Shown: positions 2,019 to 38,086 of the stretch, in pieces
Position numbering within the stretch: the stretch's first letter is position 1
Layout: each line of letters begins with the position of its first letter
Assembly: GCA_026982655.1 (NCBI GenBank)
Contig: JALSGO010000165.1
Location: forward strand, 35,032 to 99,031
DNA length: 64,000 bases
Source of the DNA: Candidatus Bipolaricaulota bacterium
Lineage (GTDB): Bacteria; Bipolaricaulota; Bipolaricaulia; RBG-16-55-9
Direction: 5' to 3'
Program-made: the position numbers and the translations under genes
Notes under the pieces: generated by a model
Database searches by the model: none
What the model was told of the DNA's origin: nothing
The model's input: only the letters and a program-made list of their open reading frames with translations

Positions 2019-3190
2019 GACCCCCCTCCCAGTGCCTTCCGCAATCGTTCTAGGCCCTCTTCGATGCGCCTGCGGGCGGTCGCGTAGGAGAAGCGCAGAT
2101 GGCCCTCTCGGCCGAAGGCCGCCCCGGGCACCGTTACGACCCCCACCTCCTCCACGAGATGGGTTGCTAACTCCGCACAGCCGTTCATCCCTCTCTGCTC
2201 CAACACACCCGTAACGTTGGGGAACGCATAGAAGGCCCCCTTGGGCACGGGGCAGCGCACCCCCGGGATCTCGTTTAGTCCTTGTACCATCAGATCGCGG
2301 CGCTTCCGATACTCCTGGATCATCTCGTGAACGCACGCTTGGTCCCCCGTGAGCGCGGCGACCGCCGCCTTCTGCGCGATGGAGGTGGGGTTGGAGGTGG
2401 ACTGACTCTGGACCTTCTCCATCGCCTTGATGACCTCCGAGGGGCCGCAGGCCCAGCCGATCCGCCAGCCCGTCATCGCGTACGTCTTCGAGCAGGAGCC
2501 CGTCACGACCACGTTCTCCTTGCCGAACCGGGAGGCCGAGAGCGGGGGCTCCTCATAGACGAATCGATCGTAGCACTCGTCGGAGATCACGTAGAAGTCG
2601 CGGGCGCGGGCCAGCTCGACGATCGCCCGAAGCTCCGAGGGCGCGATCGTCGCCCCCGAGGGGTTGTTCGGGAAGTTCAAGATGATCGCCTTCGTGCGGG
2701 GGGTGAGGGCTCCCTCGACCTCGGAGGCCGTAAGCGCGAAGCCCGCCTCCTCTCGGGCCTCCAGGGGGACGAGCCGGGCCCCCGCGAGCTGGATCTGCGC
2801 CGGGTACGTCACCCAGTAGGGCGTCGGCAGGAGCACCTCGTCGCCGGGCTCGAAGAGGACCATCGCGATCTCGTACAGGGCGTGCTTGGAGCCGCAGGTG
2901 ATGATGACCTCGCTCTGAGGGTCGAACGAAGCCTCGTACTCCCGCTCGTAGTAGAGGGAGACGGCCTCCTTGAGTTCCGGGATCCCCCCGGCCGGGGTGT
3001 ACTTCGTGAAATCGGAGGCGATCGCCTCCCACCCCGCCCGCTTGACGTGCTCCGGGGTGGGGAAGTCCGGCTCCCCGATCCCGAAGTCCACCAAGTCTTT
3101 CCCCTGGGCCCGCAGCTCCGCAGCCCTCTTCATCACCACCAGGGTGGCCGACGGGGCCAGCCGCTGCACCCGATCCGTCACCGACGGCAT
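2012..3190 (-). CDS. class I/II (aspartate-type) PLP aminotransferase
   Basis: The SCSKTYAMTGWRIGW motif contains the PLP lysine, with the whole fold recognisable over its length. The start is trimmed to the ATG at 3190, which has a GGAGG SD. The ORF-track start at 3247 has no SD. Confidence 0.8.
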   Translation of the reverse strand: MPSVTDRVQRLAPSATLVVMKRAAELRAQGKDLVDFGIGEPDFPTPEHVKRAGWEAIASDFTKYTPAGGIPELKEAVSLYYEREYEASFDPQSEVIITCGSKHALYEIAMVLFEPGDEVLLPTPYWVTYPAQIQLAGARLVPLEAREEAGFALTASEVEGALTPRTKAIILNFPNNPSGATIAPSELRAIVELARARDFYVISDECYDRFVYEEPPLSASRFGKENVVVTGSCSKTYAMTGWRIGWACGPSEVIKAMEKVQSQSTSNPTSIAQKAAVAALTGDQACVHEMIQEYRKRRDLMVQGLNEIPGVRCPVPKGAFYAFPNVTGVLEQRGMNGCAELATHLVEEVGVVTVPGAAFGREGHLRFSYATARRRIEEGLERLRKALGGGSC

Positions 3191-3368
3191 GAAGGACCTC
3201 CTCGACGTTTCTCGTACGAGTCCAACCCGAAATTCCGCGTGTCGCACCCCTCCTCCCCCTGCAGGAGGAGGAATTGGCCTATTCTACCCTCCGTCCCCAT
3301 CAGAAACAACGCATCTACGGACGATCCGTTACCGTTGTCCTCAGGAAAGGGGACGAAGGTGACGGGTA

Positions 3369-3401
3369 CGACTTACGGAGGAGCGCAGAGCCCGCTATAG
3401 T
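3369..3401 (+). promoter_or_regulatory. putative sigma-70 promoter (TTACGG, 16 nt, TATAGT) for the secreted-protein gene
   Basis: -35-like and -10-like hexamers with 16-nt spacing sit about 40 nt upstream of the ATG at 3441. Confidence 0.3.
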
Positions 3402-3440
3402 GCCCTCGATCGACAGACCTACAAAAAGGAGGCCGATCGC

Positions 3441-4385
3441 ATGAAGATGCAGAGCTGGCTGGGTGTGCTCGTTTTCGGGGTCATTCTGGGAGCCTATGGG
3501 ATCCCCGCTCCGGCGCAGGGACCAACATGGGACGTAACGCTTTCTCTGAGCGTTCCCTTCGGCCTCGAGGGGATCGCGATGGAGGAGGCCTCGCTCTCGA
3601 CCACCGCCGCCACGGCGGTGGGGGACGTTCGACTGAAGGCCGTGGCCGTCTTTACGCTCATGGGGCTCTCCGGGGCCTCCGTGAGCGCGAAGACGACGGT
3701 GGAGGAGATCTCGGTCTCTGCGAAGGCCTCCTTCTCGATGGAGGGCTTCCGCTCCGCCCGGCTCTCGCTGAGTCGGACGTTCGATCCTTTTGGGCTTTCG
3801 CTCTCCCTCTCCGTGAACCCGCAGGGCTGGGAAAGCGCGACCTTCTCCGCGCAGACGCAAACGGAGGAAGGGGTCACGTTGAGTGGGAGCACCACGATCA
3901 CGCCCGCGGGCTTCTCCCAGAAAGTTCTGAGCCTGGGGCTTCGGGTGCAGGGGCTACAGCTCCAGCGCACCACGGTGCTCACCCCCCAAGGGCTCGCTCA
4001 GGAAACGTGGAGCCTCACCGCCCAAGTGGGCGATTACACCCTCTCCCGGACGACGGTCTACACCGCCGAGGGCTTCGGCAGCGAGACGATCTCGCTGGCC
4101 ACGACGATCCGAGACATCGATGTCTCTGCCTCGACCACGTTTGATAACACCGGTTTTGCCGGAGCCGACTTGGATCTCAGCGGCCTGCTCCTGGAGGGAG
4201 TCTCCTTCCGCAGCTCCACGAGCTTCGGGCCCGGAGGCTTTCAGGAGGAGACCCTCACCCTCAGCGGCTCGTTGGGAGAGCTCAACGGGGTCGGGACGTT
4301 CCGCTTCTCTCCCGAAGGCTTCACGGGAGGCAGGCTTGACCTTAGGAGCTCCTTCCAGATGGGCGGAGAAGCCAAGGAGCAGTAG
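3441..4385 (+). CDS. secreted beta-rich repeat protein (possible outer-membrane or surface protein)
   Basis: The N-terminal signal peptide is MKMQSWLGVLVFGVILGAYGIPAPAQG, with an AAAAAGGAGG SD upstream. The mature part is Ser/Thr/Gly-rich with repeated ...EGF.../...GF... beta-strand-like modules and alternating hydrophobic residues. Confidence 0.6.
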   Translation: MKMQSWLGVLVFGVILGAYGIPAPAQGPTWDVTLSLSVPFGLEGIAMEEASLSTTAATAVGDVRLKAVAVFTLMGLSGASVSAKTTVEEISVSAKASFSMEGFRSARLSLSRTFDPFGLSLSLSVNPQGWESATFSAQTQTEEGVTLSGSTTITPAGFSQKVLSLGLRVQGLQLQRTTVLTPQGLAQETWSLTAQVGDYTLSRTTVYTAEGFGSETISLATTIRDIDVSASTTFDNTGFAGADLDLSGLLLEGVSFRSSTSFGPGGFQEETLTLSGSLGELNGVGTFRFSPEGFTGGRLDLRSSFQMGGEAKEQ

Positions 4386-10637: not shown

Positions 10638-11200
10638 CTTCTCTTCTCCTTTCCTTTGCTTTCACTTCACTTATGGATCACGACGGACATCGCGTTCACG
10701 CTGCGCCCCTCGCTCCGGCCCCATAGGCGGGATCACGGCACAAAAGACCGCCCGACTTGAGCTCAGCTCAGGCCTTCTGCCTCAGCTCCGGGGCACGAGC
10801 GAAAGGACGATTACTGGATCTGGGTCTTCTGGGACTTCGTACAGATCGGGCCTCGCAGGCCCAGGACGATATGTCCCCATCCAGTGGGGCTCGGAAGGAC
10901 AAAGACCGAGGAAGGGGAATAAAGACAGAGGAGAGATCCGGGGGAACCGACAATCTGCGTAGTACCGTCTGACCGTCTGAACACCACAAGACTCCCCCTT
11001 TCGCAAGGATGTGGGGACTCATTATACCTGGGGAGGATGGGCTTGTCAAAAGGGGGAGACGACTCGTCGAATCTGCCCCCTGATGGTACAATCCGAAAGG
11101 TTGTACGGCATCGTGGGACGGCGCAGGGGTATCGATGGGGTCTCTGGGGGTTGCGGAAGCGACGCGTCCGAAGGGCGATGACCAAGAGAAAGGGGTGTCA

Positions 11201-13630
11201 ATGAAGGCCGACACCGGCCCGCTCCGGCGAGCGCGGCTCCGGGTGCGGGTCTACGGCGCGGTGCAAGGTGTAGGCTTCCGCCCCTTTGTCTACCGTCTGG
11301 CTCAGGAGCTGGGTCTGACCGGATACGTCCAAAACTCTGCCTCCGGTGTCACGCTGGAGGTGGAGGGCCCCTTGGACCGGCTGGAGGCGTTTCGGGAGCG
11401 GCTCATCACGGAAGCTCCCCCTAACGCTGTGATCCACCGCGTTGAGTGTGAGTCCTGTGCGGTCCGGGGGGATTCCCGCTTCGTCATCCGCGCCAGCGAT
11501 GCAGAGGGGGGACAGACCGCCTTTGTGCTCCCCGATGTGGCGACTTGCTCCGATTGCTTGCGGGAGATCTTCGATCCCTCGGACCGAAGGTATCGCTATC
11601 CCTTCACAAACTGCACGAACTGCGGACCCCGCTTCACGATCCTAGAGGCCTTGCCTTATGACCGTTCCAACACGACCATGAAGGCGTTCTCCATGTGCGC
11701 CGCCTGCCGCGAGGAGTATGAAGATCCCCGAAATCGCCGGTTCCATGCTCAACCGAATGCCTGCCCGGCGTGCGGTCCGCATGTGGAGCTTTGGGGGCCC
11801 GATGGGGTCCCGCTTGCCCGGGAGGACGAGGCCCTGCGGCAGACGGTGGAGGCCCTGCGCAGCGGGCAGATCGTGGCGGTGAAGGGGTTGGGGGGCTTCC
11901 ACCTCTGGGTGGACGCTCGGGACGGCCGAGCCGTGTCGGAGCTGCGACGGCGCAAACGGCGAGGAGAGAAACCGTTTGCCCTGTTATATCCCTCCCTTGC
12001 GGTCTTGGAAGCCCATGCCTACCTCTCCCCGCTGGAGGCCGATCTCCTCCAGTCCCCTGAAGCTCCGATCGTGTTGCTGCGACGCACGAGCCGCGGAGAG
12101 CGGGAGATCGCCTCCGAGCAGATCGCTCCCTATACCCCGTACTTGGGAGCGATGCTCCCCTACACCCCACTCCATCATCTGTTGCTCCACGATCTGGGGA
12201 CTCCCGTGGTGGCCACCAGCGGCAACCTCGCAGAGGAGCCCCTTTGCATTGACGAGAGGGAGGCGCAAGAGCGCTTAGCGGGCATCGCGGACCTGTTCCT
12301 CGTGCACAACCGGCCCATCGCTCGTCCTTGTGATGACTCTGTCGTGCGGGTCATTGGGGGACGGCCCGTCCTCCTGAGGAGGGCTCGAGGGTACGCTCCC
12401 CTGCCCCTCACCCTGCCGGAGGCGTGGCCCTTGCCCCCCGTCTTGAAGGGCTCCGGAGCGCTGCTGGCCGTCGGTGGACACCTCAAGAACACCGTGGCTC
12501 TGGCGATCGGACGCCACGTCTTTTTGAGCCAACACGTCGGCGACCTCGACACGGCCTTGACTCGACGAGCGTTCCTGCAGGCGATACGCGACCTGACCGC
12601 GCTCTACCGGCGTGAGCCGTCGGGCGTGATTTGCGATGCCCATCCGGATTACGCCTCCACCCAACACGCCCGTCGGCTTGGGAAACCTCTCCAGCGGGTG
12701 CAGCACCACGTAGCCCACGTATGGGGCTGCGTGGCGGAGCACGACGTGGAGCTCCCGGCGCTGGGTGTCGCGTGGGACGGGACGGGTTACGGGCCCGATG
12801 GGACCGTCTGGGGAGGAGAGTTCTTCGTCCTCACCCCTCCGGGGCGGGCGGAAAGGGTGGCTCACCTGCGACGCTTCCCTTTGCCGGGGGGCGAGCAAGC
12901 CGTCCGGGAGCCCCGTCGTGCTGCTCTGGGGCTGCTGTACGCCCTGTGGGGGGATCGGGCCTTCGCTCGTCGCGACATCCCTACGCTCCGGGCCTTCTCG
13001 CCTCCGGAGCTCGAGGTCCTCCGCGGAATGCTCCGCAAGCGGGTGCGCTGCCCGGAGACCTCCAGCGCCGGCCGGCTCTTCGACGCGGTGGCTTCCCTAG
13101 CAGGGGTCCGACAGCGCACGAGCTTTGAAGGCCAAGCGGCGGTCGAGCTGGAGCATCGGGCGGAGCAGGTCTCCGCGCTGGCTCCCGACCTTCCCGAGGA
13201 GAACCTGCCTCGCTGGGGCTTCGCCCTCCTCCGCCGGGGAGGGATGTGGACCGTCGACTGGGAACCTTTCGTGATAGCCCTCCTAGGGGATCCCGAACGC
13301 CCGTCGGGGGAGCGCCGACCGAGAGCGGAGGAGATCGCTTGGGCGTTCCATCGCGCGTGTGTAGAGGCCATAGTCACGCTGTCTCGACAGATCGGTCTTC
13401 CTCGGGTGGTGCTGAGCGGCGGGTGCTTTCAGAACCGCCTGCTCACGGAATGGAGCCTCCGACGGTTGAAGGAGGAGGGAATAGACGCCTTCGTCCCCGA
13501 GCGGGTTCCCCCCGGCGACGGGGGCCTAGCGCTGGGCCAAGTCGCGGCGGCGATCTGGCAACTCACCCAACTCCCGTCCCGGCGCGGAGGAGGAGAGGAT
13601 GTGCCTAGCCGTCCCCGGACGGATCGTTGA
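11201..13630 (+). CDS. hypF: [NiFe]-hydrogenase maturation carbamoyltransferase HypF
   Basis: An acylphosphatase domain (VQGVGFRPFVYRLA) is followed by two CxxC...CxxC zinc-finger pairs, YrdC-like and Kae1-like domains. The start is trimmed to the ATG at 11201, which has an SD. Confidence 0.9.
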   Translation: MKADTGPLRRARLRVRVYGAVQGVGFRPFVYRLAQELGLTGYVQNSASGVTLEVEGPLDRLEAFRERLITEAPPNAVIHRVECESCAVRGDSRFVIRASDAEGGQTAFVLPDVATCSDCLREIFDPSDRRYRYPFTNCTNCGPRFTILEALPYDRSNTTMKAFSMCAACREEYEDPRNRRFHAQPNACPACGPHVELWGPDGVPLAREDEALRQTVEALRSGQIVAVKGLGGFHLWVDARDGRAVSELRRRKRRGEKPFALLYPSLAVLEAHAYLSPLEADLLQSPEAPIVLLRRTSRGEREIASEQIAPYTPYLGAMLPYTPLHHLLLHDLGTPVVATSGNLAEEPLCIDEREAQERLAGIADLFLVHNRPIARPCDDSVVRVIGGRPVLLRRARGYAPLPLTLPEAWPLPPVLKGSGALLAVGGHLKNTVALAIGRHVFLSQHVGDLDTALTRRAFLQAIRDLTALYRREPSGVICDAHPDYASTQHARRLGKPLQRVQHHVAHVWGCVAEHDVELPALGVAWDGTGYGPDGTVWGGEFFVLTPPGRAERVAHLRRFPLPGGEQAVREPRRAALGLLYALWGDRAFARRDIPTLRAFSPPELEVLRGMLRKRVRCPETSSAGRLFDAVASLAGVRQRTSFEGQAAVELEHRAEQVSALAPDLPEENLPRWGFALLRRGGMWTVDWEPFVIALLGDPERPSGERRPRAEEIAWAFHRACVEAIVTLSRQIGLPRVVLSGGCFQNRLLTEWSLRRLKEEGIDAFVPERVPPGDGGLALGQVAAAIWQLTQLPSRRGGGEDVPSRPRTDR

Positions 13631-13865
13631 ACTCCAGGAGGAAGGGCCGTTGGCCCGGCAGGGGCGCGTCGACTTCGGCGGCCTCGTCAAGACCGTGAAC
13701 TTGACGCTTGTCCCCGAGGCGCGGGTTGGGGACTACGTCTTGGTCCACGTGGGGATTGCGATCAGCGTGGTGGACGAGCGCGAAGCCCGACGAGTCCTGG
13801 AGTTCCTCCAGCAAGAAGCTCCCGAAGATCTGGAAGAGCTTCGGATCCCCGAGGAGGGAGGCTGA
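13599..13865 (+). CDS. hypC: hydrogenase maturation factor HypC
   Basis: The invariant N-terminus MCLAVPGRIVE is present. A GGAGGAGAGG SD precedes the gene, which overlaps the hypF 3' end by 32 nt. Confidence 0.9.
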   Translation: MCLAVPGRIVELQEEGPLARQGRVDFGGLVKTVNLTLVPEARVGDYVLVHVGIAISVVDEREARRVLEFLQQEAPEDLEELRIPEEGG

Positions 13866-13871
13866 GCTGAG

Positions 13872-15002
13872 ATGCGGTTCCTAGAGGAGTACCGTGATCG
13901 GCGGTGGGCCCAACGCTACGCCCGCCTGATCGCCCGGACCGTAACCCGTCCCTGGACCCTCATGGAAGTTTGTGGAGGGCAGACGCACGCCATTGTGCGC
14001 TTTGGAATTGATGAACTCCTGCCCGACGAGATCACCCTGGTCCACGGACCGGGATGCCCGGTCTGCGTCACGCCCGTGGAGATCTTGGACAAGGCCCTGT
14101 ACCTCGCAGCCCAGCCGGGGGTGATCTTCTGCTCGTTCGGGGACATGTTGCGGGTGCCGGGCAGCCAAGGCGACCTCCTCCGCGTAAAAGCACAGGGCGC
14201 AGATGTGCGCATCGTATACTCTCCCTTGGACGCGGTCCGCTTGGCCCAGCGCTATCCCGATCGCGAGGTCGTCTTCTTCGCGGTGGGCTTCGAGACCACC
14301 GCGCCGGCGAATGCCTTGGCGGTGCGGCAGGCGCACGCCCTGGGGCTGAAGAACTTCTCGCTGCTGGTGGCCCACGTCCTCGTCCCTCCCGCGATGGAAG
14401 CGATCCTGCGTTCTCCGGCCAACCGGGTCCAAGGGTTCCTCGCCGCAGGTCACGTGTGCACCGTGATGGGCTACGAGGAATACCGCCCACTCGCCCGCCG
14501 CTACCGGGTGCCCATCGTCGTAACGGGCTTCGAGCCCCTAGACCTCCTCCAAGGGATCTATCTCTGTGTGCGGCAGTTGGAGGAAGAACGCTTCGAGGTG
14601 GAGAACCAGTATGCACGATCGGTACGGCCGAAGGGCAACCGAGAGGCCCAACGACTGATCCGGGAGGTCTTCGAGGTCGTGCCCCGGAAGTGGCGGGGCA
14701 TGGGGGAGCTGCCCCGGAGCGGCTTGGGGCTGCGCGCCCCCTATCGGCAATACGACGCCGAGCACAAGTTCGCGCTGTACAGCTCCGGCTCCGATGAGCC
14801 GGAGGACTGCATCGCCGGGCTTGTCCTTCAAGGGATCAAGAAGCCTCCGGACTGCCCCGCCTTTGGGACCCGTTGTACCCCGGAGCATCCCTTGGGAGCT
14901 CCCATGGTCTCCTCCGAGGGGGCTTGTGCGGCGTACTATCGCTACCGCCGCCGTCCGTCCGAAGGCCACGGGCGCCGGGAGGAGGTGTCTGCCTCCGAAT
15001 GA
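13872..15002 (+). CDS. hypD: hydrogenase maturation factor HypD
   Basis: HypD motifs CGGQTH and GPGCPVC plus C-terminal Cys clusters are present. Confidence 0.9.
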
Positions 15003-16066
15003 CGGAACGGGAAGCTCGATTCTCCTGCCCCCTTCCCCGGGACGACTCCCCCCACGTCTTGCTGGCCCACGGAGGGGGAGGTCGCCTGATGGGGCGGCTC
15101 CTCGAAGGGATCGTATCGGCGCTGGGCGGCCCGCCGCTTGAGCATCGCCACGATGGAGCCGTCCTGGCCCTCCCCCTGGAGGGAGGGGACCGAGCGGCGT
15201 TCACCACCGACTCCTATGTGGTGAGCCCCCTCTTCTTCCCCGGCGGCGACATCGGAAAGCTCGCCGTTTACGGAACGGTGAACGACTTGGCCATGTGCGG
15301 CGCGCGCCCGGCCTACCTGAGCGTGGGGATGATCCTGGAGGAAGGCCTGCCTTGGGAGACGCTCGAGCGCGTGGTGGAATCGCTGCGAGAGGCTGCCGAC
15401 CGAGCTGGGGTCTACATCGTGACCGGCGACACGAAGGTCGTGGACAAGGGAAAGGGCGACGGCCTGTTCCTCAACACCGCGGGCTTGGGGATCGTGCCGT
15501 CGGGCGTAGAGGTCCGTCCTTCGGAGGTCCGGCCGGGAGACGTCGTGCTGCTCAGCGGGGACTTGGGACGCCACGGGATCGCCATCCTCGCCACCCGGGA
15601 AGGGCTGGAGTTCGAGACCGCCATCGAGAGCGACTGCGCTCCGCTGCACGAGCCGGTCCTCCGGCTCCTAGCCGAAGGGGTCGAGGTGCACTGCATGCGC
15701 GATCTGACCCGGGGAGGACTGGCCAGCGCGTTGCTGGAGATCGCGCAAAGCACTCAACTGCACATCGAGATCGAGGAGACCGCGATCCCCGTGCGGCCCG
15801 AGGTCCAGGCTGCCTGCGAGCTGCTGGGCCTCGATCCCCTCTATGTGGCGAACGAGGGGCGCTGGGTCACCTTCGTGCCCGAGGGGGAAGCGGAGCGCGC
15901 GTTGACCCTCTTAAGGGACTACCCCGTAAGCGCGGAAGCCTGCGCGATCGGTCGCGTCCTGCCCGCCTCGGAGGCCCTCGGCGGGCTCGTGACGCTGCGC
16001 ACCGCGATCGGGACAACCCGAACGGTGGACTGGCTAAGCGGCGAGCAGCTTCCCCGCATCTGCTAG
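14999..16066 (+). CDS. hypE: hydrogenase maturation factor HypE
   Basis: A PurM-like fold with a C-terminal PRIC is present. The start is trimmed to the ATG at 14999 (ATGA overlap with the hypD stop), which has a GGAGGAGG SD. Confidence 0.9.
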
Positions 16067-16086
16067 GGGGGGCCTTCATCCCCCCC
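16066..16086 (+). terminator. GC hairpin (GGGGGGG-CCTTCAT-CCCCCCC) directly after the hypE stop, with no U-tract
   Basis: A perfect 7-bp G/C stem starts in the TAG stop codon. The lack of a T-run makes intrinsic termination uncertain. Confidence 0.3.
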
Positions 16087-16153
16087 AGGTGCAATGACTC
16101 CCTTCGCGCTCTATACTGACCCCTCAGAGGGATAGGCGACCACAGAGGAGGCG

Positions 16154-17230: not shown

Positions 17231-19594
17231 ATGAAGCCAGGGGGGAAGCCGCGTTCGGCCCGTTGGGTGCGGAGGATCGCCTTCATCGGCGATTACCCCC
17301 CGCGCCGCTGCGGGATCGCGGCGTTTACCCACGACCTCTGCGAGGCGATCGCGGAGCAGTACCCCGACATCGACTGCTTCGCCGTCGCCGTCACGGACCG
17401 CGAGGAGGGGTACGACTATCCCCCCCGAGTCCGCTTCGAGATCCCCGAGGAGAACCTGGCCTCCTATCGACGGGCCGCGGAGTTCCTCAACACCAACCAC
17501 GTCGATCGGGTCTGCGTCCAGCACGAGTACGGCATCTACGGCGGCCCGGAGGGGCGCTACCTCTTGGCCCTCTTACACGAGCTGCACATGCCCACCGTCA
17601 CCACCCTCCACACGATCCTCAAGGAGCCCAACCCCGAGCAGCGGCACGTGCTCGAGGAGCTGGCCCGCCTCTCGGATCGCCTGGTGACCCTCAGCCGCAA
17701 GGGGGCCGAATTCCTCACGGAGATCTACGGGGTCCCCCCGGAGAAGATCGACCCCATCCCCCACGGCATCCCCGACATGCCCTTCGTGGACCCCAACTTC
17801 TACAAGGACCAGTTCGGGGTCGAGGGGCGCACCGTCTTGCTGACCTTCGGCCTCCTCTCCCGGAACAAGGGGATCGAATACGTATTGGACGCGCTCCCTG
17901 CGATCGTGAAGCGCCACCCCGAGGTGGTGTACATCGTGCTCGGCCCCACCCATCCCGGCGTGGTCCGCCACGAGGGGGAGGTCTACCGCCGCTCCCTCGA
18001 GGAGCGCGTCGCGAAGCTCCGCCTCGAGGAGCACGTGATCTTCGACGCCCGCTTCGTGAGCTTAGAGGAGCTGATCGCCTACATCGGGGCCGCCGATGTC
18101 TATATCACGCCCTACCCCAACAAGGAGCAGATCTCCTCGGGGACGCTCTCCTACGCCCTGGGGGCGGGCAAGGCGATCGTCTCGACCCCCTATTGGTACG
18201 CCGAGGAGCTGCTGGCCGACGGGCGCGGCGTGCTGGTGCCCTTCCGCGACTCGGAGGCCCTCGCCGAGGCCGTCTGTGAGCTTTTGGAGAACGAGACGGA
18301 GCGGCACGCGATGCGCAAGCGCGCGTATCTCTTCGGTCGGGAGATGATCTGGCCCAAGGTGGCCCAACGGTATCTGGAGAGCTTCAAGCGGGCGCTGGAG
18401 GAGCGGCTGCGGTCGCCTCGGCCTCGGGTCTCTTTGAGAACCCCAAGCTCCCGGGAGCTTCCGCCCCTCAAGCTCGACCACCTCCTGCGCCTCACGGACG
18501 ACACGGGCCTGCTGCAGCACGCCTCCTTTGGGGTTCCCCACTACCAAGAGGGCTACACCACGGACGACAACGCGCGGGCCCTCTTGCTGGCGGTCACCCT
18601 GGAGCAGCTGGGCGAGCCCTCGGGGAACGCGCAGCACGCGCAAGGGGTTCAAGCCCGCGTCCGGGAGCTGGCCCCTCGGTATTTGGCCTTCCTGCGCTAC
18701 GCCTTTGACCCGGGGACGGGCCGCTTTCGGAACGTCTTGGGGTATGACCGTCGCTGGCGGGAGGAGGTCGGGTCCGAGGACAGCCACGGACGGGCGCTCT
18801 GGGCGCTGGGGGCCGTGCTCCACCGCTCGCACCGCCACGATCTTCGGGGCCTGGCGGCCTGGCTCTTCGAGGGGGCCCTCCCCGCGGCCCTTGAGCTCAA
18901 GAGCCCTCGGGCGTGGGCCTTCGGTCTGCTGGGGCTGTGGGAGTACCTCCAAGCGTTCCCCGGGAGCCGCGAGGCCCTGCGCGCCGCCCAGGAGCTGGGC
19001 GAGCGGCTCTTTAAGCTTTACGAGAGGAACGCATCGAAGGAGTGGCCCTGGTTCGAAGATCAACTCACGTACGACAACGCGACGCTCCCCCACGGGCTGC
19101 TGCTCGCCGGGGAGGTCCTCAAGCGCTCGGAGATGAGGGACGCGGCACTCGAAGCCCTGGAGTGGCTGGTGGGCGTTCAAAAGGCCGAGGAGGGGCATTT
19201 TGTCCCCATCGGCAATCGGGGGTTCTACCCGCGGGGGGGCGAGCGGGCGCGCTTCGATCAGCAGCCCATCGAAGCTTATGCAACCGTGGCCGCGGCCCTG
19301 ACGGCCCACCGGCTCACGGGGAAGGGACGGTGGCACGAGGAGGCCCACCGGGCGTTTGAGTGGTTCTTGGGGCGAAACGACCTGGGCCTGCCGCTGTACG
19401 ACCCGCAGACGGGGGGCTGCCGGGATGGGCTTCAGCCCGACGGCGTCAACGAGAACCAGGGGGCCGAGTCGACGTTGGCGTTTCTCCTCTCGCGGGTGGA
19501 GCTGGCACGACACGAGGACACTCATCGCCTGGCGCTCGTGGACGCACGCGTACAACCCTCTAACGGGAACGGGAACGGAAAGGGGGAAGACTAG
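17231..19594 (+). CDS. two-domain protein with an N-terminal GT4 glycosyltransferase and a C-terminal (alpha/alpha)6 glycosidase-like domain
   Basis: The first roughly 390 aa have a GT-B/GT4 fold (EX7E-like ...FGLSMVE-type motif near ...SSGTLSYALGAGKAIV). The last roughly 390 aa resemble six-hairpin glycosidase or debranching-enzyme C-terminal domains (DDNARALLLAV...). The ATG at 17231 lacks a clear SD, so the start is uncertain. Confidence 0.65.
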   Translation: MKPGGKPRSARWVRRIAFIGDYPPRRCGIAAFTHDLCEAIAEQYPDIDCFAVAVTDREEGYDYPPRVRFEIPEENLASYRRAAEFLNTNHVDRVCVQHEYGIYGGPEGRYLLALLHELHMPTVTTLHTILKEPNPEQRHVLEELARLSDRLVTLSRKGAEFLTEIYGVPPEKIDPIPHGIPDMPFVDPNFYKDQFGVEGRTVLLTFGLLSRNKGIEYVLDALPAIVKRHPEVVYIVLGPTHPGVVRHEGEVYRRSLEERVAKLRLEEHVIFDARFVSLEELIAYIGAADVYITPYPNKEQISSGTLSYALGAGKAIVSTPYWYAEELLADGRGVLVPFRDSEALAEAVCELLENETERHAMRKRAYLFGREMIWPKVAQRYLESFKRALEERLRSPRPRVSLRTPSSRELPPLKLDHLLRLTDDTGLLQHASFGVPHYQEGYTTDDNARALLLAVTLEQLGEPSGNAQHAQGVQARVRELAPRYLAFLRYAFDPGTGRFRNVLGYDRRWREEVGSEDSHGRALWALGAVLHRSHRHDLRGLAAWLFEGALPAALELKSPRAWAFGLLGLWEYLQAFPGSREALRAAQELGERLFKLYERNASKEWPWFEDQLTYDNATLPHGLLLAGEVLKRSEMRDAALEALEWLVGVQKAEEGHFVPIGNRGFYPRGGERARFDQQPIEAYATVAAALTAHRLTGKGRWHEEAHRAFEWFLGRNDLGLPLYDPQTGGCRDGLQPDGVNENQGAESTLAFLLSRVELARHEDTHRLALVDARVQPSNGNGNGKGED

Positions 19595-20796
19595 TGGCTG
19601 CAGTGCTCATCATCCCGGAGCGGAACGAGGGAGAAGCGCCCCTCTTCGTGGCGGAGCAGGGGTTGCGGGCGCAGCCCATCAAGGCCGTCTTCCTCGTCGA
19701 CGGCTGGTCCTCCGACGACACGTTCGTGAAGCTCTCGCGCGCGATCCCGGAGATGCAGCTGCGCCATCCCAACCGTCGCATCGAGCTCTTTCGGAGCTAT
19801 CTTAGGGCCACGGGCAAGGGGGGCGCGATGGTGACGGGGCTCCAGCGCGCCTTGGCCGCCGGATACGATCCGATCGTCTTTTTAGACGGGGACATCCAAT
19901 CCGTGACCCCGCGTTGGTGTGAGCTCCTCCTGGAGGCGCTCCACGAGCAGGGGGCCGCGATGGCCCGGGGGTACTTCGACCGCAGCCCCTTGGACGCCCA
20001 GATCACCCGCCACGTCACCCGGCCCCTGATGGCCCTCTACTTCCCCGAGGGACGCCGCATCCAACAGCCCTTAGGGGGAGAACTCGCCCTGACCGCGGAG
20101 CTGGCCCGCTTCTTGCTCGAGGGCCAGATGATCGACCCGCCCCATCACTGGGGGATCGACACCTTCTTCACTGTGAACACCGTGGTGGAGGGCTTCCCCG
20201 TCGTGGAGGTCTACCTCACCCAGAAGACCCACAAGCCCAAGAGCCTGACGCAGCTGCGGCAGATGTTCATCGAGTGCTTCGACGAGATGTGCCGCCAGAT
20301 CGACTTCCACGGGCGGCTGGAGCGGGTCCCCGAGCTGGGGGAGATCTCCGTCACCGTGGTGCGCCCGGAGCGCCCGCCTGAGCGGGTGGGGCAAGACGTC
20401 CGGACCCTGCAGTACGTCAAGCTCGAGGAGCAGCGGGAGCGCTTCTTCACCTTCGTGCGGGGGCTGCGCCACCCTCAGGAGCGGCTGGAGGAGCTGGAGG
20501 TCTCCCCCGAGCTGCGGGCGTTGGTGCTCGCGCTCTTCGACCCCGAGCAGTTCGAGAAGCGCAGCTCCGAACTCAACCCCGAGACGTGGGTTCCCCTTCT
20601 GGATCAGCTGGCCCGCGGGTACATCCGGCGGAACTACCACGTAGTGTATCACGACGTCCTCTTCGCCTGCTGGCAGCTGCGGGCCCTGGCGTTCGCCCAC
20701 CACGAAGCCGAAAGCTTTGAGAAGGCCGAAGAGGCCACGGAACGTCAAGCCCAGTACGCCTACGAGTACGGGGAGCGGTATCGTGCTTCTCGCTGA
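19594..20796 (+). CDS. GT78-like glycosyltransferase, putative mannosylglycerate synthase homologue
   Basis: A DxD-like FLDGDIQ motif is present. The motifs ...IQQPLGGELAL... and ...WGIDTFFTVNT... match my recollection of Rhodothermus-type mannosylglycerate synthase (about 400 aa). The GTG start at 19594 overlaps the upstream stop and has an AAAGGGGGAAG SD. Confidence 0.55.
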   Translation: MAAVLIIPERNEGEAPLFVAEQGLRAQPIKAVFLVDGWSSDDTFVKLSRAIPEMQLRHPNRRIELFRSYLRATGKGGAMVTGLQRALAAGYDPIVFLDGDIQSVTPRWCELLLEALHEQGAAMARGYFDRSPLDAQITRHVTRPLMALYFPEGRRIQQPLGGELALTAELARFLLEGQMIDPPHHWGIDTFFTVNTVVEGFPVVEVYLTQKTHKPKSLTQLRQMFIECFDEMCRQIDFHGRLERVPELGEISVTVVRPERPPERVGQDVRTLQYVKLEEQRERFFTFVRGLRHPQERLEELEVSPELRALVLALFDPEQFEKRSSELNPETWVPLLDQLARGYIRRNYHVVYHDVLFACWQLRALAFAHHEAESFEKAEEATERQAQYAYEYGERYRASR

Positions 20797-20799
20797 AGA

Positions 20800-21033
20800 A
20801 TGGCCGAACCCTATCCTCCGCTGCCGGACGGCAGGGAATTTGACCCCGAAGAGTGGGAGCCGATAGCGGAACATACCGAACCCGCCCGCGGAAGGCACAA
20901 GCGCGGATGGAGCATTCAAACCGTATATCGCCACAAGCGTACCGGAGAGATCGTCACTCGACATCGGATTGAGAAAGCGGGTAAGATCGTCCATGACCAC
21001 TTTCGGCCCGGAGGTGCGAAGACTCGACCATGA
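20800..21033 (+). CDS. hypothetical 77-aa basic protein
   Basis: The ATG lies 3 nt after the upstream stop and the gene ends in an ATGA overlap with the next ORF. Codon usage matches its neighbours. No recognisable family. Confidence 0.45.
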   Translation: MAEPYPPLPDGREFDPEEWEPIAEHTEPARGRHKRGWSIQTVYRHKRTGEIVTRHRIEKAGKIVHDHFRPGGAKTRP

Positions 21034-21326
21034 GCCCTACGCCCAAGCTCCCGACGATCGACGAGCTGAAGCACGAGGTCCTTGAGGTGCTCGCCAACGA
21101 TTATGAAGACCTGGAGCAGCTGAGGGACCTCTTGGGCAAAGTCCCTTCCCAGCGATTGCGGGAGGCCCTCTGGGAGCTCATTCAAGAGGGCTTGGTGGAG
21201 TGCCTGAGGCCCTCGAGGACGGCCCTGCATCCCGTGTCGAACCCGAACCCTTCGGAGCTTGCTACCTATTGGTTCGCACTGACCGAGGAGGGCGAACGGC
21301 GCTTAGAACCGTCTTCTCAGCCCTAG
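21030..21326 (+). CDS. hypothetical 98-aa protein with winged-helix-like features
   Basis: It is translationally coupled by an ATGA overlap. The helical N-terminus and the C-terminal ...ATYWFALTEEGERRL resemble a winged HTH (wHTH) wing. Confidence 0.45.
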   Translation: MSPTPKLPTIDELKHEVLEVLANDYEDLEQLRDLLGKVPSQRLREALWELIQEGLVECLRPSRTALHPVSNPNPSELATYWFALTEEGERRLEPSSQP

Positions 21327-21352
21327 CGTTTGATCTCGTTGCAAGCAGGTCC

Positions 21353-22366
21353 ATGCGCATCGGGATGCTGGCGCCCATCGCCTGGCGGGTCCCGCCCCGG
21401 CACTACGGCCCCTGGGAGCGGGTCGTCTCCCTCCTCACGGAGGGGCTCGTCGAGCGCGGGGTAGAGGTCACGCTGTTCGCCACCGCCGACTCCCTCACCC
21501 GAGCGCGGCTGGTGGCCGTCTGCCCCCGCCCCTACGAGGAGGATCCCGAGATCGACCCCAAGGTCTGGGAGGGGCTCCACATCGCGGAGGCCTTCGAGCG
21601 CGCCCGCGCCGGGGAGTTCGACCTCTTGCACAACCACTTCGACTTCCTGCCCCTCACGTACAGCGGTCTGGTGGACATCCCCGTGCTCACCACGATCCAC
21701 GGCTTCTCCTCGGAGAAGATCCTGCCCGTCTACGAGAAGTACAACGGACAGGTCTATTACGTCTCGATCAGCCACGCCGACCGCCACCCGAAGCTCGACT
21801 ACGTCGCCACGGTCTATCACGGCATCCCCGTCGAGGAGTTCACCCTGCGCCGCGAGCGCGGGGACTATCTGCTCTTCTTCGGGAGGATTCATCCCGACAA
21901 GGGGGCTGCGGAGGCCATCGAGGTCGCCCGGCGCTCCGGGAGGAGGCTGGTGATCGCGGGCATCGTCCAAGACGAGAAGTACTTCGAGGAGCGGGTGAAG
22001 CCTCATCTCAACGGAAACATTGAGTACATAGGCTCCGTCGGGGGTCGGGAGCGGGACAAACTCCTCGGGGGCGCGTACGCTCTACTGCACCTCATCAACT
22101 TTGACGAACCCTTCGGGCTCAGCATGGTGGAGGCGATGGCCTGCGGCACGCCCGTGATCGCCCGCCCGCGCGGGGCGGTCCCCGAGGTCGTAAGAGACGG
22201 GGAGACCGGCTTCCTCGTCCACACGGTGGACGAGGCCGTCGAGGTCCTCCCCCGGGTGGCGCAGCTCGACCGCGGGAGGATCCGCCGACACGTGGAGGAG
22301 CGCTTCCGCGCCGAGCGGATGGTGGAGGACTACCTCCGGGTCTACCGGCAGATCCTGGGCTCATGA
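21353..22366 (+). CDS. GT4 family glycosyltransferase
   Basis: A GT-B fold with the EX7E region (DEPFGLSMVEAMACGTPV) is present. The start is trimmed to the ATG at 21353 (MRIGMLAP). The ORF-track GTG at 21200 would add 51 non-homologous residues. Confidence 0.8.
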   Translation: MRIGMLAPIAWRVPPRHYGPWERVVSLLTEGLVERGVEVTLFATADSLTRARLVAVCPRPYEEDPEIDPKVWEGLHIAEAFERARAGEFDLLHNHFDFLPLTYSGLVDIPVLTTIHGFSSEKILPVYEKYNGQVYYVSISHADRHPKLDYVATVYHGIPVEEFTLRRERGDYLLFFGRIHPDKGAAEAIEVARRSGRRLVIAGIVQDEKYFEERVKPHLNGNIEYIGSVGGRERDKLLGGAYALLHLINFDEPFGLSMVEAMACGTPVIARPRGAVPEVVRDGETGFLVHTVDEAVEVLPRVAQLDRGRIRRHVEERFRAERMVEDYLRVYRQILGS

Positions 22367-23580
22367 CGGAGTTCGTCCTGGGGATCAACTACTGGCCCAT
22401 CTCGAGCGCGATGGGCTGGTGGAAGCGCTTTCCGCCGGAGGAGGTGGAGCGGGACTTCGCCCGCATTCGGAGCGCGGGATTGGAGATCGTACGCATCTTC
22501 TTGCTGTGGGAAGACTTTCAGCCCGCCCCTCAGGAGATCTCCGAAGGAGCCCTTCATCGTCTTCAGACGACGGCCCATATCGCGAGCGCTCACGGGCTGA
22601 AACTGCTGATCACGCTCTTTACGGGTCACATGAGCGGGGCCAATTGGCTCCCCGCGTGGGCCCTCTCCTCCCGATCGGGGGCGGGGGCAAACGCCTCGCA
22701 GCGATTTCCGACGATCTCGCAGGGGCGCGTCGGGGATGCCCTTCCCCGCAACTGGTACACGGACGAGGAGGTACAGCGAGCACAGGAAGTCCTGGCCGAG
22801 CGCGTGGGCGAGGAGCTGAAAGACCACCCCGCCGTCTGGGCCTGGGACCTGGGGAACGAGAACTCGAACGTCTGCGTGCCGCCCTCGCGGGAGCTGGGGC
22901 TGCGATGGCTTAAGCGCATGGCCGGGGCGCTCCGCCGCGCGGGCGCGCGGCAGCCCCTCACGCTGGGACTGCACATGGAAGACTTAGAAGAGGACCGCCG
23001 TCTGGGCCCCGCCGAGGCGGCTCCAGTCTGCGATTTCCTCTCCATGCACGGGTACCCGGTGTACGTCTCCTGGGCCGACGGCCCCAAGGACCCCTGGGTG
23101 CTCCCCTTCTTGGGGATGATCACCCACTGGCTCGGCGGCGGAAAGCCCGTCTTGTTCGAGGAGTTCGGGGCACCCACCCGACTTCCCTCCGAGGTTCCTA
23201 CCGAATCGCTCCCCGTACCCCTTCTTACCGAGGAGGAGGCAGCAGGGCTCATCGCACAGGCCCTCACGCTCTTGAGGCGCTTTGGGATGGTGGGCGCGCT
23301 CCTCTGGTGCTACGGGGACTACGATCCCGCCCTCCGGCACGATCCCCCCTTCGATCGCGCGCCCCACGAGCTGCGCTTCGGACTCTGGCGCGCCGACGGC
23401 TCGGAGAAGCCCGCCGTGGGCGTCGTCCGCCGCTTCGCCCAAACCCCCTCCCGGAACCGCGAACCCGAGGGAGGCCCGGACACGGGTTGGATTGACATCC
23501 CGCCCGAGAGGTTTTATACAGATCCCCGTGCGCATCTCGTGCGCCTCTACCGGCGCTTCCGGGAGCGCTTTTCGTCTTGA
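22363..23580 (+). CDS. GH-A clan TIM-barrel glycoside hydrolase (GH5/GH113-like, possible beta-mannanase)
   Basis: GINYWP, WDLGNENS (acid/base Glu) and VLFEEFG (nucleophile Glu) motifs are present. The gene has an ATGA overlap with the upstream GT4. Confidence 0.65.
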   Translation: MTEFVLGINYWPISSAMGWWKRFPPEEVERDFARIRSAGLEIVRIFLLWEDFQPAPQEISEGALHRLQTTAHIASAHGLKLLITLFTGHMSGANWLPAWALSSRSGAGANASQRFPTISQGRVGDALPRNWYTDEEVQRAQEVLAERVGEELKDHPAVWAWDLGNENSNVCVPPSRELGLRWLKRMAGALRRAGARQPLTLGLHMEDLEEDRRLGPAEAAPVCDFLSMHGYPVYVSWADGPKDPWVLPFLGMITHWLGGGKPVLFEEFGAPTRLPSEVPTESLPVPLLTEEEAAGLIAQALTLLRRFGMVGALLWCYGDYDPALRHDPPFDRAPHELRFGLWRADGSEKPAVGVVRRFAQTPSRNREPEGGPDTGWIDIPPERFYTDPRAHLVRLYRRFRERFSS

Positions 23581-34670: not shown

Positions 34671-34748
34671 TGGTCGGGACGGCCGGATTTGAACCGGCGA
34701 CCTCTGGCCCCCCATGCCAGCGCGCTATCCAGGCTGCGCCACGTCCCG
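34671..34748 (-). tRNA. tRNA-Pro(GGG)
   Basis: The cloverleaf was folded by hand. The acceptor is CGGGACG/CGTCCCG, the anticodon stem is CTGGC/GCCAG with loop ATGGGGG, the T-loop is TTCAAAT and the 3' CCA is encoded. Confidence 0.8.
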
Positions 34749-36599: not shown

Positions 36600-36654
36600 G
36601 GGTTGCCAGAGGGAGCGGGGCCGGTTAGAATAGCAGCGTCTAAAGGCAGGATCT

Positions 36655-36729
36655 CGGGGAGTGGCGCAGCCTGGTTAGCGCGCAGCGTTCGGGACGCTGA
36701 GGTCGCCGGTTCGAATCCGGCCTCCCCGA
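36655..36729 (+). tRNA. tRNA-Pro(CGG)
   Basis: The acceptor is CGGGGAG/CTCCCCG, the anticodon loop is TTCGGGA and the T-loop is TTCGAAT. The CCA is not fully encoded. Confidence 0.8.
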
Positions 36730-36736
36730 CCCGAAA

Positions 36737-37387
36737 TTACGCTGAGGCGTTGATCCACCAGACGAAGGCGGCCACGAGGGCCAAAGCGAGCAGAATCCCC
36801 AGGAGGTCTACGGCCGAGAGCCTCCGTTCTTGGAAGGGGCGTACGCCGGGGGTCGACTCCTCCTCTAAGACCTGGATGATCTCCTGAATGCCTCGGACCA
36901 TTCCCTCTTCGAAGGCCCCCCGCTCGAAGGCCGGGAGGATCGACCGCTCGAGGATCTGCGCGAGTCGCTCGTCGGGGAGCACCCCCTTGAGCCCCTCGCT
37001 CGTGGAGAGCATCACCTGCCCGTCCTCCACGGCGACCAAGAAGATCAACGTCCGGAGCTGGGGGTCCTCCTTGTTCAGCCCCCAGCTCTCCCAGACGCGC
37101 CGGATGTACTTCTTGAGGGGCAGCGGCTCGGTAAACGGGACCGTGAGCACGTAGATCCGGACGCCGCGCTCCTCCTCGACACGGGCGAGGGCCCGGTTGA
37201 GCCCCGCCTCCACCTCGTCCCTGAGGACTTGAGCCCGGTCCACGACGTACGCCGTCCGCTCGGGGATGACCACCTCCGCGGCTTCTCCCTCTTGGTCCCC
37301 TTGTGCCCCTGCCGACACCGCCCCGCCCGCGAGGAGCCCGACCAATCCGATCCAGACCGCAAGCCATCCACGTCGTCGACGTCGCAC
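36737..37387 (-). CDS. TPM-domain protein (TLP18.3/Psb32-like phosphatase fold)
   Basis: A signal peptide and a TPM-like core (YVVDRAQVL...RIYVLTV) are followed by a C-terminal TM helix. A GTG start at 37387 with a G-rich SD is suggested. Confidence 0.6.
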   Translation of the reverse strand: MRRRRRGWLAVWIGLVGLLAGGAVSAGAQGDQEGEAAEVVIPERTAYVVDRAQVLRDEVEAGLNRALARVEEERGVRIYVLTVPFTEPLPLKKYIRRVWESWGLNKEDPQLRTLIFLVAVEDGQVMLSTSEGLKGVLPDERLAQILERSILPAFERGAFEEGMVRGIQEIIQVLEEESTPGVRPFQERRLSAVDLLGILLALALVAAFVWWINASA

Positions 37388-37523
37388 GAGCGAATCCCCC
37401 CCTTGATGCACGTGATCGGATGTGAGCGCGAACGGCTGCGAGGGTAGCACAGCTTCCCCTACGGCGCAAACCCTCCGGGGTTTGACGGAGACGGGAGGGA
37501 CCGCTAGAATACGTAGTACCTGT

Positions 37524-37597
37524 GCGGATGTAGCTCAATGGTAGAGCACCGGCCTTCCAAGCCGGAGACGCGGGTTCGATTCCCGTCATCCGCTCCA
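37524..37597 (+). tRNA. tRNA-Gly(TCC)
   Basis: The hand-folded cloverleaf has anticodon loop CTTCCAA and an encoded CCA. Confidence 0.85.
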
Positions 37598-37626
37598 GTG
37601 ACCGGTGATATGCGCTTAGAAAGCGC

Positions 37627-37702
37627 GCGCCCGTAGCTCAATCGGAAGAGCAGCGGCCTTCTAAGCCGCAGGTTGCAGGTTCGAGCCCTGCCGGGCGTAC
37701 CA
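37627..37702 (+). tRNA. tRNA-Arg(TCT)
   Basis: The anticodon loop is CTTCTAA and the CCA is encoded. Confidence 0.85.
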
Positions 37703-37709
37703 TCCGCGT

Positions 37710-37782
37710 GAGGGACGTAGCTCAAGGGCAGAGCACCGGCCTGTGGAGCCGGGCGTTGCGGGTTCGAGTCCCGTCGTCCCTC
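37710..37782 (+). tRNA. tRNA-His(GTG)
   Basis: The anticodon loop is CTGTGGA. The extra G at position -1 pairing with discriminator C is characteristic of tRNA-His. Confidence 0.85.
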
Positions 37783-37791
37783 CCCGCGCGT

Positions 37792-37867
37792 GCGCCCGTA
37801 GCTCAATCGGAAGAGCAGCGGCCTTCGGAGCCGCGGGTTGGGGGTTCGAGTCCCTCCGGGCGTACCA
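37792..37867 (+). tRNA. tRNA-Arg(TCG)
   Basis: The anticodon loop is CTTCGGA and the CCA is encoded. The body is near-identical to the Arg(TCT) gene apart from the anticodon and T-arm. Confidence 0.8.
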
Positions 37868-37869
37868 GG

Positions 37870-37951
<82 letters not shown>

Positions 37952-37966
37952 CCCCTCGCTTGCCCC

Positions 37967-37994
37967 TTGACAAGGGACGCCTAAAGCGTATAAT
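37967..37994 (+). promoter_or_regulatory. consensus sigma-70 promoter (TTGACA, 16 nt, TATAAT) for tRNA-Gly(GCC)
   Basis: Perfect -35 and -10 hexamers lie about 16 nt upstream of the tRNA 5' end. Confidence 0.6.
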
Positions 37995-38010
37995 CCTTAG
38001 CGGGAGACGA

Positions 38011-38086
38011 GCGGGCGTAGCTCAGTTGGTAGAGCGTTGGCTTGCCATGCCAAAGGTCGCGGGTTCAAGTCCCGTCGCCCGCTCCA
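38011..38086 (+). tRNA. tRNA-Gly(GCC)
   Basis: The anticodon loop is TTGCCAT and the CCA is encoded. Confidence 0.85.

Follow-up and report, generated by a model that had tools for sequence, protein, structure and literature searches.

Why do two very small open reading frames (ORFs) stand between two glycosyltransferase (GT) genes in an operon of a Candidatus Bipolaricaulota bacterium? The question is raised by a 64,000-nucleotide (nt) stretch of contig JALSGO010000165.1, called the window here, in which the pair, designated ORF1 and ORF2, occupies the following positions.

20800..21033, plus strand: ORF1, 77 amino acids (aa), ATG start; predicted toxin, a free-standing homologue of Rhs C-terminal domains
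21030..21326, plus strand: ORF2, 98 aa, ATG start; predicted winged-helix fold; predicted immunity or antitoxin partner of ORF1
21030..21033, plus strand: ATGA stop/start overlap at the junction of ORF1 and ORF2

These positions, sizes and overlap agree with those given in a previous reading of the window that was made from the letters alone (the sequence-only reading), as do the distances to the neighbouring genes. The upstream gene, which encodes a 400-aa MGS_GT-like (GT78-type) enzyme matching the mannosylglycerate synthase GT domain (PF21969, E 3e-27), ends in a TGA codon at 20794–20796, and the ORF1 ATG follows 3 nt beyond. The ATG of a GT4 gene at 21353 lies 26 intergenic bases after the ORF2 stop codon, or 27 nt when counted as start minus stop. 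Three explanations had been offered for the pair, and that of a toxin–antitoxin (TA)-like cassette inserted into the operon has held up. The other two, a regulator pair and a GT chaperone or specificity factor, have not, given the unrelated contexts and the foreign codon usage described below. We consider it likely that ORF1 and ORF2 form a horizontally acquired, self-contained toxin–immunity cassette that behaves like a type II TA module.

The relatives of ORF1 carry much of this argument. A profile was built from ORF1 and two close homologues (P0001, 72% identity; P0002, 68%) and used for an exhaustive search of 1.84 billion representative proteins, which yielded 111 matches at E ≤ 1e-3, including seven at E ≤ 1e-10. 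The domain reaches the C terminus or stops a few residues short of it in 109 of 112 sequences (median distance 0), and many carriers are longer than ORF1 itself, with 69 between 110 and 400 aa and 12 above 400 aa. The large carriers are RHS_repeat/DUF6531/YD-shell proteins of 858–2,551 aa, among them P0070 (2,075 aa), P0081 (2,551 aa), P0098 (1,430 aa), P0104 and P0105, and the fragments P0053, P0054, P0055 and P0123 also bear RHS signatures. The C termini of RHS-repeat proteins match the ORF1 profile at E values from 3e-12 to 1e-5 (hmmsearch over the whole library of 1.84e9 proteins). Polymorphic-toxin warheads are recognized by just this arrangement, in which an Rhs protein ends in a small variable domain and a small gene comes next (Zhang et al. 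2012, PMC3482391). The C-terminal position of the domain in RHS-repeat proteins therefore suggests that ORF1 is a free-standing Rhs C-terminal toxin domain, a homology that the sequence-only reading had not foreseen.

The family is defined by a small set of near-invariant residues, which in window numbering are W19 (88%), E27 (88%), G36 (89%), S38 (96%), H55 (98%), G61 (86%) and R69 (94%); R54, H65 and H67 are also frequent. The window copy of ORF1 holds all of these residues. It is basic, as the sequence-only reading had noted, with an isoelectric point (pI) of 9.6, and the other family members are basic or neutral. It has a conserved start of its own and an N-terminal extension, M(S)YPPLPDG.FDP.EW. 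A structure model (AlphaFold2, alignment of 30 sequences) has a predicted local distance difference test (pLDDT) score of 83 and places residues 19–28, 36–45, 51–59 and 62–70 in a four-stranded antiparallel sheet, so that the domain is predicted to be all-beta.

Our best guess at the activity of ORF1, which we would put somewhat short of an even chance, is that of a metal-independent ribonuclease (RNase) using E27, H55 and R69, with or without S38. This set of E, S, H and R resembles the residue sets of the predicted metal-independent RNases Ntox24, Ntox37 and ColE3 (Zhang et al., PMC3482391). Like the small all-beta predicted RNase toxins (Tox-ColE3, Ntox24, Ntox37 ‘E, [KR], Hx[DH]’; PMC3482391), ORF1 has a core of about 55–60 aa, a predicted all-beta fold and a linkage to Rhs proteins, and its conserved E … R-H … H-x-H-x-R pattern is similar to the residue sets given for them. 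Unlike those families, however, the ORF1 family gives no profile match, and we treat the likeness as a lead and not as membership. No Pfam family, Tox and Ntox families included, matches any of 30 ORF1-family members at E ≤ 1, and a domain scan assigned no family to the tails of 9 + 10 larger carriers. It is conceivable, but improbable, that the domain constitutes a biochemically new class of all-beta Rhs effector of about 55 residues, without a structural relative among solved toxins.

ORF2 likewise belongs to a family of its own. It has a close homologue, P0004 (72% identity), and a four-sequence ORF2 profile retrieved 43 proteins of about 90–108 aa, all without a Pfam domain. With a pI of 4.7 and a net charge of −8, ORF2 is strongly acidic, as is the family throughout (pI 4.0–5.2, net charge −5 to −15). 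The sequence-only reading had called ORF2 winged helix-turn-helix (wHTH)-like, and this holds at the level of the fold: the AlphaFold2 model (42 sequences, pLDDT 89) is a PadR/MarR-like winged helix with a C-terminal helix–strand–helix extension. The invariant residues comprise the LAND[YF]E motif, with which helix 1 ends, a set of hydrophobic residues in helix 3 and the motif [YF]WF[AG]L[TS]..GE near the C terminus. Pfam wHTH matches to ORF2 all fall below their gathering thresholds (DUF5805, 18.7 bits against 28.5; GMT-wHTH, 16.4 against 27; GntR, 13.4 against 27), and those to the 42 family members are sub-threshold as well.

Genes of the ORF2 family also follow two Rhs genes that end in ORF1-type domains. 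An 83-aa gene 3 nt downstream of the Rhs gene for P0112 matches the ORF2 family with an hhalign probability of 96.4% (E 1.4e-9), and a 123-aa gene that overlaps the stop codon of the 2,551-aa Rhs protein P0081 by ATGA matches it at 80.6% (E 1.3e-5). Both share LADD[FI]E and WF.L motifs. Because close and distant relatives of ORF2 alike are linked to ORF1-type domains, ORF2 is best described as a member of a putative immunity family of the ORF1 domain that is built on a wHTH scaffold. We found nothing specific in the literature on wHTH immunity proteins of Rhs toxins, and literature matches to the conserved motif strings of ORF1 and ORF2 were unrelated coincidences only. The 166-aa gene after the Rhs gene for P0098 was also considered as an ORF2 homologue and was ruled out (hhalign probability 0.07%).

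The two genes are also found together in places that have nothing to do with glycosyl transfer. The sequence-only reading had proposed checking both the conservation of the pair in related clusters and its co-occurrence with GT genes. Every fetched locus with an ORF2 homologue carries an abutting ORF1 homologue on the same strand (established by tblastn and inspection of open frames), and adjacency is kept in all loci examined, including the syntenic cluster represented by L004 and L005. Linkage to GT genes is limited to the window, of which L002 and L003 are copies, and to this one close relative, in which ORF1 is 84% and ORF2 72% identical to the window proteins and the flanking genes are shared. 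The ATGA overlap is usual and occurs in 7 of 8 distinct pairs examined, with a 19-nt overlap in its place in L004; it probably couples the translation of ORF2 to that of ORF1.

The loci that bear ORF2 span about eight unrelated contexts. In L001, the pair lies near genes for a tyrosine integrase, two ribbon-helix-helix proteins, a D5-type primase-helicase and an RNase H-like (RVT_3) protein, a gene content by which L001 appears to be a small integrative element or satellite-like replicon. A four-gene block of this locus (2486–3805) is about 90% identical over roughly 1.4 kb to a block in a Salinibacter metagenome-assembled genome (MAG; L019, 5241–6557). It comprises a gene for a 173/174-aa protein with a weak MerR/excisionase-like N terminus, the pair itself and an opposite-strand gene for a Cys-rich 91-aa protein. 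In a Binatia MAG, the pair stands beside type I restriction HsdR, VapBC and a DUF1016/YhcG nuclease-like gene. In Candidatus Fraserbacteria, it lies between an adenylosuccinate-lyase-like gene and an S9 peptidase gene whose start overlaps the ORF2 stop codon, and in L022 and L023 it adjoins Rrf2 and Crp regulators. None of the stand-alone pair loci has an adjacent Rhs gene.

More distant pairs extend this pattern. The pair in L022 has an ORF1 homologue (P0046) of 55% identity, and its partner matches the ORF2 family with an hhalign probability of 99.8%. In L021 (3084–3649), between SecD-like and aminotransferase genes, the order is reversed: an ORF2-like gene of 98 aa (hhalign 99.5% to the ORF2 family) is followed, after a 26-nt gap, by the 80-aa ORF1-like P0047, which is 39% identical to ORF1. 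In L018 (Deltaproteobacteria MAG JACQEL010001012.1), the toxin frame is cut to its last 44 codons (583–717) and the ORF2 homologue is intact (714–1016). A decayed toxin beside an intact antidote is the usual pattern of decay in toxin–antidote pairs. Contexts as scattered as these point, therefore, to a mobile two-gene module that is independent of GTs and not to an accessory of one pathway.

Both ORFs are real genes under purifying selection. In seven pairwise comparisons (Nei–Gojobori), the ratio of nonsynonymous to synonymous divergence (dN/dS) is 0.07–0.18 for ORF1 and 0.10–0.49 for ORF2. Their composition sets them apart from the operon. The G+C content of third codon positions (GC3) is 0.59 in ORF1 and 0.79 in ORF2, compared with 0.82–0.93 in the six surrounding operon genes. 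Among 2,160 windows of 77 codons drawn from these six genes (mean 0.90, minimum 0.727), none is as low as 0.59. Overall G+C content is 0.587 over 20700–21150, compared with about 0.67 in the flanks. The codon usage of the pair is foreign to the operon, and the neighbour-like usage claimed for it in the sequence-only reading must be given up. A search for flanking direct or inverted repeats as marks of insertion gave only short, chance-level matches.

The short toxin gene is largely invisible in public records. The exact ORF1 sequence has no copy in a collection of 15 billion proteins and has thus never been called as a gene. The ENA, JGI and NCBI records show no call for it on the window's own contig, in L004 or at the Fraserbacteria loci, and at the Binatia locus a 64-aa minus-strand ORF has been called over the toxin gene. 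Because the gene is short, lacks a Shine-Dalgarno (SD) motif and may start with TTG, it is routinely missed or swapped for a call on the opposite strand. Examples of toxin genes missed by public gene calling are the following.

Window, 20800–21033: toxin gene missed by public gene calling
L002, 9768–10004: toxin gene missed by public gene calling
L007, 5783–5977: toxin gene missed by public gene calling

Two features within ORF1 bear on the expression of the downstream gene.

21009..21015, plus strand: GGAGGTG, SD-like motif for ORF2, 14 nt upstream of the ORF2 ATG
20958..20987, plus strand: sigma-70-like promoter match TCGACA-18-TAAGAT, inside ORF1 and upstream of ORF2

The GGAGG motif coincides with the Gly-Gly codons of the conserved FRPGGAK tail of ORF1 and is present upstream of ORF2 in 10 of 10 loci, with a spacing of 8–14 nt in the homologues. 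ORF1 genes start without an SD motif, and those of L009 and L012 (Fraserbacteria) start with TTG. With an SD motif on ORF2 only, expression appears to be biased towards the antidote. The promoter match is the sole one of its kind in 19500–22500 (one site compared with 0.1 expected in shuffled sequence). As a consensus match it is weak evidence, and the site may allow the immunity gene to be transcribed from within ORF1. Upstream of ORF1, the window shows no obvious promoter belonging to the cassette, and no terminator-like site is found within or next to the cassette. Since the cassette lies on the same strand as the operon and has no such site within or beside it, it is probably transcribed by read-through from the operon.

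These observations suggest the following model. The cassette would have been inserted, in the orientation of the operon, between the two GT genes, leaving gaps of 3 and 26 nt. ORF1 would be a cytoplasmic toxin, and ORF2, made in excess, would neutralize it by direct binding. Loss of the cassette or a failing supply of ORF2 would free the toxin, whose most likely target, on the same tentative footing as the catalytic assignment above, would be RNA. The pair shows asymmetries typical of a toxin and its antidote, which lend support to this model: ORF1 is the more conserved protein (68–84% identity compared with 36–67% for ORF2), the predicted charges of the two proteins are complementary, the SD motif is on ORF2 only and the toxin is the decayed partner in L018. 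Candidates for the physiological role are selfish addiction, anti-phage abortive infection and protection from the Rhs toxins of neighbouring cells.

The model places the pair between two known kinds of system. As in Rhs/YD-repeat polymorphic toxins, ORF1 is homologous to a domain that ends RHS-repeat proteins, the toxin and immunity genes are tightly coupled in that order with the immunity gene directly downstream, and genes of the ORF2 family stand behind two Rhs genes. However, the window ORF1 consists only of a 77-aa domain without RHS shell, PAAR or trafficking part, so that the toxin domain ends a large multidomain protein in its homologues but not in the window. Furthermore, ORF1 matches no Pfam Tox or Ntox family and ORF2 no Imm family. 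Because these delivery parts are missing and no Rhs gene, nor any YD or RHS repeat, occurs within the 64-kb window, ORF1 is not expected to be deliverable to other cells.

The pair also resembles type II TA modules (RES-Xre, Ntox24 TA, RelE/BECR and Doc, and the toxin-first HigBA, HicAB and MqsRA). Here too, two small, overlapping, co-directional genes include a partner with a wHTH fold, and the coupled pair recurs in unrelated contexts. The spread over phyla, mobile elements and defence islands is patchy, gene order varies, the toxin is more conserved than the antidote, and one decayed toxin lies beside an intact antidote. Indeed, C-terminal domains of polymorphic toxins (BECR RNases, RES, Ntox24 and Doc) have been documented as small free-standing toxins of type II TA modules as well (Zhang et al. 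2012, PMC3482391). The pair differs from these modules in that no sequence or profile match to a known TA or defence family is found, and in that the ORF2 family is very acidic throughout and shows no evident basic surface for reading DNA, which makes autoregulation by ORF2 doubtful. With PadR, MarR and HxlR regulators, ORF2 shares the winged-helix fold but has only 13–27% identity to them, Pfam scores below the gathering thresholds and a family net charge of −5 to −15, and its invariants (LAND[YF]E and WF.L..G) do not seem to be the DNA-contact positions of those families.

Several observations weigh against the toxin–immunity interpretation. Both the toxicity of ORF1 and its neutralization through binding of ORF2 are inferred. 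Nothing above threshold was found for ORF1, ORF2 or their family alignments in Pfam, NCBIfam, PHROGs, PADLOC or PDB sequences. At family position 35, the G of 84% of members is replaced by R in the window protein. The immunity link does not hold for every carrier, because the gene that overlaps the Rhs gene for P0098 by ATGA (L020, 4554–5054) encodes an unrelated 166-aa protein without a Pfam match. Unrelated immunity partners for one toxin domain are common in polymorphic toxins, and this protein may represent another immunity family, independent of ORF2, for an ORF1-type domain. When metagenome contigs were searched with the 400-aa GT as query, no relative turned up in which the two GT genes adjoin without the cassette, so that insertion is deduced from composition and context only. 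Finally, synonymous divergence (dS) between the window and L004 (480–728) is 0.76 for ORF1 and 0.42–0.72 for the flanking genes. This similarity indicates that insertion was not recent and predates the split of the window from L004. ORF1 has nonetheless kept a GC3 of 0.59 in the window and 0.71 in L004, far under the 0.81–0.93 of host genes. This would reflect either slow amelioration or selection for low-GC3 codons, such as for low translation of the toxin.

What else could account for the pair? It is hardly credible that the ORFs are chance frames in a high-GC genome. High-GC DNA yields many long spurious ORFs, dozens of which overlap real genes in the ORF list of the window, and ORF1 is unannotated in public records; however, such frames would not be expected to show purifying selection, protein sequences conserved across phyla (at identities as low as 39%, and with the partner still in place), or confident AlphaFold2 folds for both proteins. 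It is also very improbable that the pair is an accessory of the mannosyl-glycoside GT cluster, either as a wHTH regulator with a basic co-factor or as a chaperone or specificity factor. Such a role would fit the PadR/MarR-like fold of ORF2 and the tight embedding (3 and 26 nt) that is kept between the same flanks in L004 and L005. However, all other homologous pairs lack a GT neighbour, codon usage is foreign to the operon and the relatives of ORF1 are Rhs toxin tips. The regulator version suffers in addition from the strong acidity of ORF2, too great for an obvious DNA-binding regulator, and from a helix 3 whose conservation is hydrophobic and not basic. A different tie to the operon, in which the cassette has been co-opted as a growth switch that links compatible-solute or mannoside synthesis to growth arrest, we judge distinctly improbable. 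The dosage of toxin and antidote would then be set by transcription of the glycoside operon and by translation through termination and reinitiation 3 nt after the GT stop codon. This possibility arises because the same intergenic position has been kept over a dS of about 0.4–0.8, the cassette has no promoter of its own and its codons have persistently failed to adapt.

Two further alternatives accept the homology to Rhs toxins or the toxicity of ORF1 and differ in what is selected. In one, the locus is an orphan immunity gene: ORF2 would be maintained against the Rhs toxins of neighbouring cells, and ORF1 would be a silent or poorly translated leftover or a recombination cassette. The missing SD motif and occasional TTG start of ORF1, its omission by the NCBI, JGI and ENA gene callers, and the intact ORF2 homologue beside a truncated ORF1 in L018 are all in keeping with this, and stand-alone toxin cassettes are recognized in polymorphic toxin loci (PMC3482391). 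However, purifying selection is stronger on ORF1 (dN/dS about 0.1) than on ORF2, the near-invariant residues are all kept, ORF1 has its own conserved start and N-terminal extension, and neither RHS/YD repeats in the 64-kb window nor Rhs genes adjoining the stand-alone loci are found; we therefore regard an orphan immunity locus as improbable. The other alternative, anti-phage abortive infection in which infection releases or activates ORF1, concerns the role of the pair and is compatible with the toxin–immunity interpretation. Many TA modules act in this way. Two contexts support it, namely the Binatia MAG, with HsdR, VapBC and the DUF1016/YhcG gene beside the pair, and L001, where the pair seems to be cargo of an integrase/primase element. 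Most contexts, however, are housekeeping operons and not defence islands, and none of 5,027 PADLOC models gives a match, which leaves this role rather doubtful.

The surroundings of the pair are those of a mannoside gene cluster. The operon runs from ManC (GDP-mannose) through a 787-aa GT4 fusion and the MGS-like GT to ORF1 and ORF2, and continues with the GT4, a 405-aa protein and a GH130 protein. The 787-aa protein (17231–19594) has an N-terminal GT4 domain (residues ~28–366), its C-terminal half, about 400 aa long, gives no Pfam match, and the stop codon of its gene overlaps the start of the MGS-like GT gene (19594). The 405-aa protein, encoded at 22363–23580 between the GT4 and GH130 genes, scores just under the cut-off for GH42 (20.9 bits against 21) and lower for GH5 (17.8 against 23.5), and is possibly a diverged glycosidase with a TIM barrel that belongs to the mannoside cluster. 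Immediately 5′ of the GDP-mannose/GT cluster, at about 11100–16150 of the window (placed from L002, 106–5037), are genes for hydrogenase maturation, namely hypF, hypC, hypD and hypE. Elsewhere, the window holds eight tRNA genes (36654–38086 and 34671–34748), two of which are tRNA-Pro; six form a tight cluster at 37524–38086 (Gly-TCC, Arg-TCT, His-GTG, Arg-TCG, Leu-TAG and Gly-GCC).

ORF1 and ORF2 should not be counted within the carbohydrate pathway of the GT operon in which they reside. Toxin–immunity modules derived from polymorphic toxins, and modules resembling type II TA systems, are of an already known kind. New are the predicted toxin domain, with 111 matches among 1.84 billion proteins, and its putative winged-helix immunity family of more than 40 members, both outside all profile libraries tested. 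The finding exposes a systematic gap in the annotation of the short toxin gene and provides a concrete and cheap experimental target, consisting of a 77-aa predicted toxin with four candidate catalytic residues and a 98-aa predicted antidote. It would also link Rhs polymorphic toxins to free-standing TA-like modules in little-studied phyla, as represented by Fraserbacteria, Binatia, Salinibacter and Bipolaricaulota-type MAGs.

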